From Antedon mediterranea (lineage: Eukaryota > Animalia > Echinodermata): a DNA stretch of 64,000 bases. The stretch spans positions 12,967,045 through 13,031,044 of the forward strand of contig NC_092680.1 of the NCBI RefSeq assembly GCF_964355755.1. Direction: 5' to 3'. The first letter of the stretch is position 1, and each line of letters starts with the position of its first letter. A program made the translations under genes and the position numbers. The notes beneath the pieces were generated by a model. The model saw nothing but the letters and a program-made list of their open reading frames with translations, searched no databases and was not told the origin of the DNA. Below are positions 21,961-41,456 of the stretch, piece by piece.

Positions 21961-24900
21961 ATGGCGATATCTTATATCAAGTCTTTGATTCTAGTTTTAC
22001 TTTTTACTGCTCAAAGTATTGGTAAGTGTAAAACTGATTATCTACTACAGTAATAATTGTTATACTATTATAGTCAGTAAATGTCATTTATTTATTTGTC
22101 TCATGCAGAAATACTTCTCCATGTTTTACTTTTGAAAACAAACAAAAAGAGAATTGATCAGACAACTAAAAGTAAACAGGATTACTAAAACTTAGAGTCA
22201 GTAGTCCTATGATTGGTTTATGATAACATAATTAATAATTAGGCACATAAACTATAAACTATTATATACCAAATGTATACAATAAAAAACAAAGCAAAAA
22301 AAAAAACGATTTATAGATTATTACCAAGAAGGGAAGAATCAATCTATATGATAAAAGAAGATTAGGGAAAGATTCAGTATGTCCGTAATTGATGTAACTG
22401 AGATCATAGCTTTTATCAATAAGTTCCATAGCATTGTCATTGGTTAATTGAAAACCAATACAAACAGCGAAAACAGTTTGGCTTAAAAAACTGAACTTAT
22501 TTGAGCAGTAGAAAAAGTTTACGGTATCTTTTGCATTAAAGAATAGGAAAATGAGATGTAAATACTGGAGCATGGGTCTTTAAAGTTCAGGTCAAGCAAG
22601 ATAGATGGTTAGGTATTTTCTGGAAGATTATACTTTTGTTAACGGAGTAACTTCTAGTTATTTTTCTTTTTCTTTTTCTTACGATCTAAGTACTGACAGG
22701 CCTTGTCATAGTTACCGATGACGTAAACGCAATGACGTATATGTACAGCCAATCACAGGCGAATGTTTGGATAATCAATCACTTGTAATTGGTCAAATTA
22801 CTTGTGTTGCGTTTGCACCACGTCATGTAACAACCAAACTTAGCATATCTACACGTAAATAAATACATGCATTTAATTAAGCATGGGATAATAAAGATAC
22901 ATTCTAGAAATGAAATGTTTATTTCAATAATTTGACTTGTAAAACACAAAATCAGTAAATACCTTAACCAAACTTGGTTGATCTTAAACTGACGTTATAA
23001 AAGAAGTTCGAGATAAATCTATTGAAAAATCATCTTCACTCCATAATACATTAAAAATGTAAAATAGATAGCTTTAACATTTTTTTTTCAAACCCCATAA
23101 CTATTTTGCTGGTAGAATAATCGAACGCTATTCAAATTCGTATTTTAGAATATTTTGTCGGGAGTTTAGATTTAGTTTATTGTTTCATAAATATATAAAG
23201 AGAACATATTTAAATACCGTGAGATAAAGTTACCCACATAAAATTCTACTGAGTTGGGAGAAAACACTAAGGTAACTTGACTGAAAGTGTTACTACACCG
23301 GTATAGGCTTATATAAACATAAAGTAGAAACATTATTGATTTTTTCTTCAAAAAAATTGTACCACAAAAGTTCAAAAATAAAATTGTGTTTTCACACAAT
23401 TCTTGCTTATCTTTAATATCCTTACGGGCAAAAACGGTTAGGAATATTACATTTTTTTAATTAAATTACAGAGGGAAAAAAAATCTGCAGTCAAATATGT
23501 GTACAGCCACATCAAAACCAGGCACTTGGTGAAATATATATTTTTTTAGTTGATACTATAATGGTATTCCTCACAATATATCCTTCAAAATGGTGTTTGG
23601 ATCATTTAAATCAAGCAAATATTCCCAGAGTTATGGCAATAAATGTATATAGCATTTATACAACAATTTATTTGTAATTACTGAGTAATTAACAGTCAAA
23701 GTTTAATGACAAATCAGACAGGAAGTTGCCCCATGCTGTTACAGATTGAACAATTAACACCTTAGCAACACTACCTTCTAGATAAACAATCATTCTGAAA
23801 TTTGGCACACTTATTCAATATAGTGTTTTCTGATATTCATGAAAATTTCATCAAAATCCGAGGTGGTTATCATAGTTAATTATGACGATTACAAAGTACC
23901 ACTAATTTACGTAAAATCTGTCAAATTCATTTATAATACTGTAGTGTAAGAATAATACAGTAGGCCTACTAGTAGGTATTCAGGAAGATTGCCTGAGCTT
24001 ATTATTAGTTCTAAACAAATTTTTAAAAAACAGCAAACATTTTATTAATGAACTTTATTAAATTTTATTTCTCTTTTTACTTTATTTTATCTGCTTTTTG
24101 TTCAAAATGGCGCAGGGCACATAATGTCCTTCGTTTCTGGTCGGCAAAATTCAATTACCAGTATTTTATTTGTGAGTGATTTGTATTGTACTGGTTTTTA
24201 GTGTTAATGTTATGTATGTAAGAGAAACTCAACAGTTCTTTTCAGACTTAATATACGTGGTGTACCGCAAACTTTATATCAACATTTGATTTCGCCATGC
24301 AAACCTTCAAACAATGTTATGTATTCTATTGTTGAACCAGCACCATAACAGATAGCCACACCCGTTAGCTTGAACAATGTTTTTAAGCATGATGAATAAC
24401 GTGAAATTTAGCCAAGGTACCAGTATTTTATTTGTGAGGGATTTGTATTGTACTGGATTTTACTGTTGTTAATGTTATGTAATACGTCTATTGTTGAACC
24501 AGCACCTGGCCTGATCATGACAGATAGACACACCTGTTAGCTTGAACAATGTTTTTAAGCATGATGAATAACGTGAAATTTAGCCAAGGTACCAGTATTT
24601 TATTTGTGAGGGATTTGTATTGTACTGGTTTTTACGGTTTATGTTTTGCACACACTCCCCACACACCCAACCCATCATTGGCAATTTTTAAGCATAGGCC
24701 TAATGAAATTTAACCAAATTGAAATAAATAAAATAGCCCAGCAGTAGGCCTAGTAAGTAGGCCTACTAAAGTAAAGCCTTCCAGGAAGCTTATTATACTA
24801 TAGAGAGGAAAACTCTATCTTATTTTAATTGGGCTAGGCCTTGTTGTTGTTATTACTATTATTATTACTAGCTAGCTAGGCCTACTATGCCATGCAGCCT

Positions 24901-39900: not shown

Positions 39901-41456
39901 GAGAAGTTGTATAAAACACTACAGATTGCCGATCTACACAGTGATAGAATTGTCAATATTTTAGTATTGCTTTTTTGTTTGTTTCTGTACATTGTTTAGG
40001 CCAACACATAAAGATGATTGGTGTCTGCACTGAAACGTCAACAAAAGGAAATTTATTGAGCTATCTGTGCTCATTTGAAGATGCAACCAGTGATGTTAAA
40101 CCAAAATCCAAGGAGTTGATAAACTATTTTTTACAGATAGCCAATGCAATGCAGTTTCTACACATAAACGAGGTAATACAATAATTCTTGTTTCATTACG
40201 CTATTCAGGCTGGCAGTGGTTGGTTGCCATCATTAAAATTGTCTTATAGATAGTTAATCTTTGGCGGATAACCCATTGTGATTGTCAGGATCCTTTTTTT
40301 TTTGTTCCTTGTTTCTTTCTTTTCACGATTTTTGTTTCAGGTGTATTTCTAATTCTTACCAGAGCCAGTAGCGTTCTATGATGATTGTTTTTTCCATTGC
40401 AGAGAGTCTGTCCGATGCTTTGTTGTCAGTTGATTATGCTGTTTAGTGACAATATTGTAAAAATCCCTGTGCTTGGCTTGAAATATATCAATAATGAGAA
40501 CGCGGATCTCTATCGAATTGTAAGCTAATTTATTTATATACATGAACCTGCATGAAACTGTGCCTAAAATCTTTTAACTTAACATAATATGTCTGTTTTC
40601 ATTACTCATAACAAATAAAGACGGTGGCTACAAAAAATGTTAATGCTTTTTTAGGGAGAAGACAGAAGTTTACAGTTGAGATGGATGTCACCTGAAGCAA
40701 TTAAATATAGCATTGCAACAAAGGAAAGCGACGTGTGGACTTTTGGAATCGTCCTCTATGAAATTGTAACATTTGGTAAGAACCGATTTTAGAAAATTTC
40801 TCACTAAAATTTTATTCTTATTCCTATAATATATTATACACGAGGATGGGGTCGTCATGATTATTTCAGTCATTATTTTTTGTACAATTATTTACAATCC
40901 TGTGTAGATGAGAGAACACTTTTTTTTTATCGAGGGAAAACCAGTAAATTGAAATTCGAAAATCATGTAAAGAATATAAACATTTGTTTTTAGGTGATGC
41001 TCCATATGCTGAAATAAAAGATGAAGATATAAGAACACATGTATCTGATGGAAACCGCATTCCGAAACCACGGTCTTGTAGCGATACACTGTAAGTCATT
41101 TTAAATTGTTTTTCCTCCAAAGTTGAAAGTTGTCGAAGTTCAAACAACCTTCTGATTGAATTTCATCATCAAGTTCAAACAATACTATATTATTGTATCT
41201 GTACAGGTATGTCCTTATGAAAAAATGTTGGAAGGAAACGCCATCGGAACGTCCATCTTTTGATGAGCTTGTTGGTGATTTGGAAAACATGAAACGTACC
41301 AATGTGAGTATGTAAATGAATGTATTACGTAATCATGATTGCTGAAATAAAACATAAGATAATGATAGTAGGCAATTTAATCTAGTTTTAGCTTATGTAA
41401 ATTTCAATATTCATTCATTCTCTTTATTTTAGATAAATATCCATAGTATATATTAA
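21961..41456 (+). CDS. Gene B: receptor tyrosine-kinase-like protein, SP-WSC-3xSushi/CCP-TM-pseudokinase-pseudokinase, ~970 aa, ~21 exons
   Basis: GT-AG exons joining in frame: 21961-22021 (SP); 30319-30669 ([42 protein letters not shown]); 31173-31574 (2 CCP); 31902-32078 (CCP); 32388-32509 (TM); 32824-32880. Kinase-like domain 1: 34488-34635, 34940-35050, 35662-35816, 36176-36292, 36608-36728, 37100-37196, 37634-37727. Kinase-like domain 2: 38070-38226, 39404-39514, 40000-40172, 40403-40519, 40655-40775, 40994-41090, 41207-41303. Last exon is 41433-41456 (INIHSIY*) or possibly 41699-41716; this choice is uncertain. Confidence 0.85.
23495..25740. mobile_element. Non-autonomous TIR element (~2.2 kb) in gene B intron 1
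   Basis: TIR ATATGTGTACAGCCACATCAAAACCAGGC ... GCCTGGTTTTGATGTGGCTGTACACATAT, with internal direct repeats at ~24157-24640. No clear TSD. Confidence 0.75.
26011..26218 (+). pseudogene. Orphan 5'-truncated copy of the gene B third-sushi exon plus downstream intron
   Basis: [36 protein letters not shown] nearly matches 31984-32078. The following GGTATCACATTTGTTAGGTCACAGGTCACC matches 32159-32188. Confidence 0.85.
27300..27470. mobile_element. hAT-type MITE, 171 bp
   Basis: CAGTGGCG...CGCCACTG termini with a perfect 8-bp TSD AGTATAAT on both sides. Confidence 0.85.
27874..28931. mobile_element. TIR element hosting a nested MITE
   Basis: TGAGGCC(A)nTTGTTTGTTTGCTGTCA ... TGACAGCAAACAAACTA(T)nGGCCTCA. 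Confidence 0.65.
27957..28734. mobile_element. Tc1/mariner (pogo-type) MITE
   Basis: TA|CCGTATATTTCGGTGTATAAGTCGCAC ... GTGCGATTATACACCGAAATATACGC|TA, with repeated TATAAGACGCACCC subterminal boxes. Confidence 0.8.
30917..31036 (+). mobile_element. Short DINE-1/HINE-like (Helentron-associated) element
   Basis: T-run, AGTCGCGTG..CGCGACT subterminal inverted repeat, (GTCG)n microsatellite, 3' GGCC..GGCC hairpin, then a T-run. Confidence 0.6.
33155..33935 (-). mobile_element. Longer member of the same DINE-1/HINE-like family
   Basis: Same ends as 30917-31036 in reverse orientation, with two (GACA/GACC)n tracts at ~33205-33275 and ~33856-33900. Confidence 0.65.
34488..37727 (+). CDS. Gene B pseudokinase domain 1 (7 exons)
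   Basis: Tyrosine-kinase motifs retained: [69 protein letters not shown]. Catalytic motifs lost: VAVK->AIAY, HRDLAARN->[11 protein letters not shown]->VIG. Confidence 0.85.
38070..41303 (+). CDS. Gene B pseudokinase domain 2 (7 exons)
   Basis: Retained: [69 protein letters not shown]. Lost: VAVK->ALGR, HRDLAARN->[11 protein letters not shown]->VLG. Confidence 0.85.
38236..39245. mobile_element. Cluster of ~4 PIF/Harbinger-like MITEs in one gene B intron
   Basis: Repeated GCTTGGTTCCCACTAG ... CTAGTGGGAACCA(A/C)GCT termini. The copy at 38615-38806 has TTA on both sides. Confidence 0.75.

Follow-up and report, generated by a model that had tools for sequence, protein, structure and literature searches.

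Within a 64,000-nucleotide (nt) window of the genome of the feather star Antedon mediterranea, a crinoid echinoderm (NC_092680.1, positions 12,967,045 to 13,031,044), a gene on the forward strand encodes a single-pass receptor whose extracellular region combines a WSC domain with three CCP (sushi) modules and whose cytoplasmic region holds two tandem tyrosine-kinase folds, D1 and D2, both lacking their catalytic residues. In our reading, to which we give slightly better than an even chance, this receptor arose by the joining of two gene families and the duplication of a dead kinase domain, and it signals as a non-enzymatic scaffold. Directly observed are the open frame and its domains, the loss of the motifs, two parent families, a duplication that runs exon for exon, and selection at the fold core. 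RefSeq already annotates the gene, without name or function: a protein search with the WSC exon reached XP_071964453.1 (P0001; Antedon mediterranea, 1000 residues, an "uncharacterised protein") at 100% identity.

Joining 22 exons between 21961 and 41716, at splice sites read from the sequence, yields an open frame of 3003 nt whose 1000-residue translation equals XP_071964453.1 letter for letter; all 21 introns are GT-AG, and neither stops nor frameshifts interrupt the model. The intact spliced frame that the original prediction had proposed is thus borne out, as is its picture of many intact exons, although its count of about 21 missed a juxtamembrane exon (32975-33073). Its gene end at 41456 gives way to one at 41716: the exon at 41699 begins ANCF, matches the AICF of related receptors, and is the one used by RefSeq, whereas the last exon first considered (41433-41456) keeps the frame open but matches neither RefSeq nor the family. 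The features, all on the plus strand, are as follows.

21961..22021, exon 1: start codon and signal-peptide-like segment (residues 1-20)
30319..30669, exon 2: WSC domain (residues 21-138; Pfam PF01822, E 2e-13)
31173..31574, exon 3: CCP1 and CCP2 (PF00084, two stretches; colinear with P0004/P0005)
31902..32078, exon 4: CCP3 (PF00084, E 1e-10)
32388..32509, exon 5: transmembrane helix (by hydropathy)
32824..32880, exon 6: Gln-rich juxtamembrane segment
32975..33073, exon 7: juxtamembrane segment holding Tyr417 (YEND), present in the RefSeq model
34488..37727, pseudokinase domain 1 (D1, residues 424-704), seven exons: 34488-34635, 34940-35050, 35662-35816, 36176-36292, 36608-36728, 37100-37196, and 37634-37727
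37728..38069, D1-D2 intron: 342 nt, phase 0
38070..41303, pseudokinase domain 2 (D2, residues 705-995), seven exons with the intron phases of D1: 38070-38226, 39404-39514, 40000-40172, 40403-40519, 40655-40775, 40994-41090, and 41207-41303
41699..41716, last coding exon: ANCFK, then stop
41717..41762, out-of-frame tail remnant behind the stop: PRTGNPI, against PSSGNPF in the family
41833 and 41843, AATAAA, 3′ of the tail remnant

The layout of XP_071964453.1 (signal peptide, WSC, three CCP modules, one transmembrane helix, two tyrosine-kinase folds) agrees with that first proposed and draws on Pfam, hydropathy, and AlphaFold2. Pfam returns WSC at 58-129, two Sushi stretches (E<=0.001), and two PK_Tyr_Ser-Thr stretches (E 8e-101) for the whole protein; scanned exon by exon, it finds two Sushi stretches in 31173-31574 and one in 31902-32078, hence three CCP modules, of which CCP1 is the weakest. 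The signal peptide was called by eye and by its position relative to the related proteins P0004 and P0005, and the single transmembrane segment begins at about residue 333. When aligned with 18 reference kinases drawn from the search matches, the protein has Tyr469 (D1) and Arg753 (D2) at the position of the β3 Lys, where a change from Lys to Arg abolishes activity. HRD is replaced by CPM in both domains and DFG by VIG (D1) or VLG (D2); the Gly loop of each retains one Gly, and the αC Glu is Asn486 in D1 but kept in D2. The C-lobe motifs WMSPE, SDVW, and the terminal W-R-P-F are intact in both. The motif pattern of the original prediction (β3 Lys, HRD, and DFG lost, C-lobe motifs kept) therefore holds against active tyrosine kinases: both domains are pseudokinases by motif and are predicted to lack phosphotransfer and to retain a vestige of nucleotide binding at most. 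The protein shares with active receptor tyrosine kinases an extracellular region, one transmembrane segment, and a cytoplasmic tyrosine-kinase fold but lacks the β3 Lys, HRD Asp, and DFG Asp, which makes it a receptor tyrosine pseudokinase, that is, a single-pass receptor with a tyrosine-kinase fold whose catalytic residues are missing.

Structure prediction, proposed earlier as a check, returns two complete kinase folds: AlphaFold2 with a 29-row alignment gives each domain a full N-lobe and C-lobe, at a mean predicted local distance difference test (pLDDT) of 82.7 and a predicted template modelling score (pTM) of 0.57 (without an alignment, the pLDDT is 35). In Foldseek, single tyrosine kinases match at template modelling scores of ~0.8, and the top matches are two-domain constructs (EGFR-KDD and JAKs) with root mean square deviations of ~19-23; the domain arrangement may differ from theirs or may not be fixed by the model. 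Prediction of a D1-D2 complex, in which the alignment was not used, scored 0.00 in two runs and is evidence neither way.

In our searches, the closest relatives of the kinase domains are single-pseudokinase receptors of crinoids. Searches with residues 430-996 (the best 120 of 168 matches among proteins of 550-1750 residues, and 95 matches among proteins of <550 residues) both show a sharp gap among the matches listed: P0007, P0183, and P0008 stand at 55-56% identity over half of the query, and the others are generic kinases with E-values >1e-46. P0007 and P0183 come from Antedon mediterranea (XP_071965949.1 and XP_071965946-8, consecutive accessions on a 41 Mb contig), and P0008 from Anneissia japonica (XP_033103710.1, automatically named FGFR3-like). 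Each has a signal peptide, two sushi modules, a transmembrane segment, and a single kinase fold that shows the dead motifs of D1 and D2 (CPM/CPL for HRD, VLG/IIG for DFG, no β3 Lys). P0007 and P0008 are 62% identical (178/289), and the dead domain has therefore been kept across two genera; the kinase domains of P0007 and P0183 are nearly identical, with their sushi modules more divergent. D2 is 55% and D1 46% identical to P0007, and D1 is 50% identical to D2. The double form shares the dead motifs and, in a 24-row tree that omits five reference rows with truncated N-lobes, a single branch with these relatives (five crinoid domains, 100/100, on a long stem), but it has neither their two-sushi ectodomain, which is unrelated to its own, nor their intact DYIE and NPF tail, whereas they have one kinase domain and no WSC. 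Within the branch, D1 and D2 are sisters (93/97, slightly below the threshold that the tool sets), and support for joining them to the Antedon paralogues is weak (86/66); the tree does not place the parent family of the crinoid dead domain among active kinases.

Because the dead motifs and the branch are common to Antedon and Anneissia, catalysis was lost before these genera split. By the same sequence comparisons, the loss predates the D1/D2 duplication, which likely came later, a point absent from the original prediction. The comparison also brings to light an uncharacterised crinoid family of pseudokinase receptors, automatically named FGFR3-like, in which all three catalytic motifs are lost; we found nothing on it in literature searches, from which subscription journals were mostly excluded, and supplementary kinome tables might list it.

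The ectodomain has a different source. Its WSC exon is 60-65% identical to the kinase-less WSC-sushi proteins P0004 and P0005, and residues 21-330 are colinear with P0004 (Antedon, 53%) and P0005 (Anneissia, 55%), against a best local identity of ~29% to the sushi modules of P0007. These crinoid WSC-sushi proteins (XP_071964676/7 in Antedon, XP_033124707.1 in Anneissia; automatically named CSMD-like) share the first 330 residues, WSC and CCP1-3, but have far more sushi modules and a short tail, and they lack a kinase domain. P0004 and P0005 share 70% identity with one another, against 53-55% with the receptor, whose ectodomain is therefore the fast-evolving copy. The gene is thus likely a chimera of two crinoid families, a WSC-sushi ectodomain and a dead-kinase receptor, a point that the original prediction also missed. 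We tentatively put the joint, as its likely position, in the phase-1 intron that precedes 32388, because the transmembrane exon is weakly closer by blastp to P0007 (E 1.6e-4) and P0183 (E 5.6e-4) than to P0004 (E 0.082); the transmembrane segment of P0008 gave no match. The contig that carries P0004 equals that of P0001 in length, and the P0004 gene therefore likely lies on the same chromosome as the double-pseudokinase gene; copy number and synteny are based on protein searches. Both parents are still in the genome, as the kinase-less WSC-sushi gene and the single-pseudokinase receptors, so that swap, duplication, and tail loss can be dated in one lineage.

D1 and D2 match exon for exon: each has seven exons in matching phases, with four pairs of equal length and three that differ by 9, 18, and 3 nt (all multiples of three), and the paired introns differ widely in length. 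The seven-exon kinase block was likely duplicated after the ectodomain had been joined to the kinase, and synonymous divergence (dS) of 0.5-0.6 between the domains fits a fairly young duplication. An assembly artefact behind the tandem was considered and rejected: the domains are 70% identical in DNA (581/831), and in a comparison with raw contigs over 36100-41780, a DNA contig of run X2 covers 37301-38262 without differences and sets the last D1 exon beside the first D2 exon, although this contig possibly derives from the assembly's own sample and would then not be independent of it. Run X1 was likewise rejected as RNA and treated as DNA, its contigs reaching 26 kb and its listed pieces and joints falling in intronic repeats. 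Read depth is lower at 40850-41780, which we do not count as a finding.

At the 3′ end, the single-domain relatives close with CFGPDYIE...NPF, whereas the double-form gene starts this exon in frame (ANCF) and stops, with PRTGNPI behind it in another frame. As we read the sequence, a small frameshift removed the Tyr/NPF tail; the score of the remnant was reached by 0 of 3000 random downstream windows, with the query chosen after the match had been seen. Tyr and NPF motifs of this kind act in SH2 docking and in sorting through EH domains.

Selection has acted unevenly on the two domains. The overall ratio of nonsynonymous to synonymous divergence (dN/dS) between D1 and D2 is 0.71 by counting (0.52-1.00), 0.60 under GY94 (p=0.009 versus 1), and 0.73 under MG94 (p=0.095), which cannot reject 1. 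Split by site class, the ratio is 0.32 (0.18-0.53) for the 75 fold-core sites that are conserved among 15 reference kinases and 0.91 (0.64-1.30) for the remaining 203; the values become 0.35 and 0.84 when the exon pair of highest similarity, a possible case of gene conversion, is dropped. Of 45 sites conserved both in the family and in other kinases, D1 keeps 39 and D2 keeps 43. Sites conserved only in the family have a dN/dS of ~0.76 and variable sites 1.11. Neutral simulations at 0.25 substitutions per site left the D2 frame open in 3 of 2000 runs, before indels or splice loss are considered. Together with the ratio at the fold core, this agrees with the earlier judgement that simple decay is unlikely. 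The ratio near 1 that had been named as telling against constraint is absent from the fold core but approached elsewhere, with an overall range of 0.60-0.73 and one of two codon models unable to reject 1. The fold is maintained in both copies, most of the surface being relaxed or diverging.

In our proposal, a glycan or matrix ligand would be bound at the WSC tip, with the sushi stalk keeping it away from the membrane; PMC2754085 considers WSC a domain that likely binds carbohydrates. Clustering would then bring two folded, probably nucleotide-free domains beside an active kinase or adaptor, a partner that may dock on the dead domains or phosphorylate retained tyrosines (Tyr598 and Tyr888 of the activation loops, Tyr417 of the juxtamembrane segment). 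D2, nearer the ancestral domain, is the likelier working surface, and D1, which has drifted further, may be a spacer or offer another docking site. Without the Tyr/NPF tail, the receptor would be cut off from the tail-based signalling or sorting of its parent. Exon 7, a local duplicate of the exon-6 region (70% DNA identity, E 1e-7), has symmetric 0-0 phases and leaves the frame open when removed; it could be skippable.

Several observations weigh against this scaffold reading. The tail lost is one conserved in the family, and most of the domain surface (the 203 sites outside the fold core) evolves at a dN/dS of 0.91. At sites conserved only in the family, D1 equals D2 at 60/121, compared with 40/101 at variable sites (p=0.18), and therefore a conserved docking surface shared by the two copies is not evident. 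Branches are long (0.91 for D1 and 0.44 for D2, versus 0.26 for the single-domain paralogues), and a pTM of 0.57 alongside high pLDDT suggests that D1 and D2 have no fixed orientation. No orthologue of the double form appears among the best 120 of 168 matches, the 95 smaller matches, or the best 150 of 52,662 matches in a profile search of 1.84 billion representatives, which many long multi-stretch proteins make shallow for kinases. Finally, the ligand and the partner are putative, as is the ATP state of the two domains.

Much of this evidence could also be read as that of a decoy or adhesion receptor, in which the ectodomain does the work and the dead domains are a passenger tail, kept just enough to fold and escape degradation and carrying no specific signal. 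Constraint concentrated at fold-core sites with the others near neutral, the loss of the conserved Tyr/NPF tail, and an ectodomain parent family that has no kinase domain at all would each fit. Yet a stop after the transmembrane segment would shed ~580 residues with no obvious penalty, but across 14 kinase exons the frame and every splice site have come through a dS of 0.5-0.6, and D2 still matches P0007 at 77/121 family-only sites versus 28/101 variable sites; we consider a passenger tail unlikely.

The same rates could instead reflect a fast-evolving immune-type receptor, whose WSC domain senses microbial glycans, whose near-1 surface dN/dS hides positive selection, and one of whose dead domains is a bait or divergent docking site. 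The ectodomain is indeed also a fast copy (53-55% identity to P0004/P0005, themselves 70% identical), dN/dS reaches 1.11 at variable sites, and WSC is likely carbohydrate binding (PMC2754085). Relaxed constraint accounts for the same numbers, however; two sequences are too few for a site-level test of positive selection, and one copy of the architecture was found rather than an expanded family. We judge this explanation decidedly unlikely.

That the double-domain form is one transcript is predicted from the RefSeq model and the exon phases. Were the main product to end after D1, with D2 in a minor or separate transcript, the double form would be an annotation join; read-through from D1 into the intron does meet a stop after 14 codons, near 37769, followed by an ATTAAA at 37814. 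This is the single such hexamer in the D1-D2 intron, where ~1 per 342 nt is expected by chance, and D2 has no start, signal, or transmembrane exon in the 342-nt gap. The phase-0 symmetry, the better conservation of D2, a terminal exon that follows D2 only, and the RefSeq join itself (the evidence behind which is not visible) point the same way, leaving truncation after D1 improbable. A protein search found no terminal exon or tail remnant in the D1-D2 intron but is insensitive, having missed the true remnant too; DNA comparison found none there either. Recent silencing, with past selection, present decay, and the tail frameshift as the first lesion, would suit that frameshift, the high overall dN/dS, the duplication at the 5′ end, and the partial sushi exon stranded in intron 1, but a 3003-nt model without stops or frameshifts, 21 canonical introns out of 21, and the RefSeq coding annotation make it highly improbable.

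The scaffold reading sets the receptor apart from known systems. In a set of 380 proteins, 232 have a kinase domain and 32 score two or more, including four bird INSRR entries that were dropped as one split domain each; their motifs were judged by a crude pattern match. Besides XP_071964453.1, this leaves 27 multi-kinase proteins, of which two have a transmembrane segment before the kinases, both Montipora isoforms (P0280, P0284) with intact motifs; the rest are multi-kinase chains or fragments with no upstream transmembrane segment, several with dead domains. Among the latter, a partial krill protein (P0287) lacks DFG in both kinase domains. No other animal receptor with two dead kinase domains occurs among the searched proteins, the ESM Atlas gave generic kinase clusters only, and the literature searched, again mostly without subscription journals, holds nothing on this gene or on an animal receptor with two pseudokinases. 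The novelty first claimed thus stands within these searches, and the double-pseudokinase receptor is known from one species: tandems of two active kinases occur in coral receptors, and double pseudokinases in cytoplasmic proteins, but a receptor with two dead domains was not found elsewhere.

The protein would work as a receptor pseudokinase does, yet it falls outside PTK7, ROR, Wsck, and the JAK-type tandems. PTK7/CCK4, ROR, and RYK are likewise single-pass receptors with a tyrosine-kinase fold that lacks catalytic residues, acting as scaffolds or co-receptors, but they have one domain and Ig, kringle, or WIF ectodomains. The double form has a WSC-sushi ectodomain and does not group with the tree rows P0082 or P0110, long branches limiting placement; the PTK7 row (P0082) lies outside the crinoid clade and is less degenerate, keeping the β3 Lys and the catalytic-loop Asp. 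JAK tandems pair two kinase folds per chain but are cytoplasmic with one active domain, and these and plant tandem kinases have at least one intact domain, whereas D1 and D2 both lack the triad. Two dead kinase folds in one chain also occur in Drosophila gi|21626698, which we take to be Unc-89/obscurin; that protein is cytoplasmic and MLCK-like. PMC2754085 describes it as an I-set/Fn3 protein with two kinase-like non-kinase domains and Drosophila Wsck (P83097) as WSC-Fn3-transmembrane-dead kinase. Wsck thus shares a WSC ectodomain, a transmembrane segment, and a kinase-like non-kinase domain (same source) but has Fn3 in place of sushi and one domain; it is absent from our matches and tree and was compared by description. 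Our Pfam scan shows no Fn3 and two kinase-fold domains in the crinoid receptor, whose crinoid parents point to an assembly independent of Wsck.

Montipora XP_068686129.1 and the human oncogenic EGFR-KDD (PDB 9p9u) share with the crinoid gene an in-frame tandem duplication of a whole kinase exon block, but both Montipora domains keep Lys, HRD, and DFG, whereas the crinoid copies stem from a domain that was already dead when it was duplicated. EGFR-KDD arises somatically, and its activation runs through an intramolecular dimer (PMC12357603). The coral (Montipora) proteins P0280-P0285 are Ig-transmembrane receptors with two nearly identical, motif-intact tyrosine kinase domains and form a natural counterpart of EGFR-KDD. 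Unnamed ENA entries (P0128, P0274-P0278) of ~2900 residues string together ten tyrosine-kinase folds in tandem, and the catalytic-loop and DFG patterns are both present in the last fold only. PMC8662651 describes how extracellular domains have been shuffled among receptor tyrosine kinases; its accessible part mentions neither echinoderms nor tandem domains.

A stronger proposal would make this the first animal receptor to rely, for all of its intracellular output, on a tandem of two fully dead tyrosine-kinase folds, made by germline duplication behind a glycan-sensing ectodomain and with copies split into different docking surfaces; we advance it tentatively and regard it as doubtful. In animals, a dead kinase domain is usually the only one in its receptor or else lies next to an active kinase under its regulation. 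If true, the proposal would offer a natural experiment on the kinase fold without catalysis in cis, and with two dead copies retained under selection, such a receptor would single out the purely structural role of the fold.

Elsewhere in the window, a 7.74-kb tandem duplicate (7492-15231 and 15229-22966, with only 3 differences) takes in receptor exon 1, its upstream region, and one exon of the neighbouring gene, so that an identical copy of exon 1 lies at 14226-14286; the duplicate is either very recent or an assembly error. At 26011-26220, inside intron 1, the 3′ half of the CCP3 exon recurs as a stray copy together with its donor site (30/31 residues identical). The neighbouring gene is the following.

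5719..7774, minus strand, neighbouring divergent gene: short Cys-rich exon 7641-7774, transmembrane exon 7339-7421, and a long exon for a charged cytoplasmic region

The cytoplasmic exon includes Tyr motifs, VYAQV and LYQSM among them, and the product resembles a single-pass receptor that has Tyr-based docking sites; the 5′ exons of the gene were not located. Nested mobile elements with long open reading frames (ORFs) on both strands occupy 49687-63562. We take these to be gag-pol of a Pao/BEL-type long terminal repeat (LTR) retrotransposon, from their motifs, interrupted by a presumed L1-transposase-like ORF and by a 1110-residue ORF (53390-56722) for a presumed endonuclease/reverse transcriptase. 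Direct repeats of 700 nt (48852-49551 and 57725-58424, 99% identical) may be LTRs. In the first D2 intron, 38233-39247 holds several short inverted-repeat elements at very high read depth and therefore belongs to a high-copy family resembling miniature inverted-repeat transposable elements.

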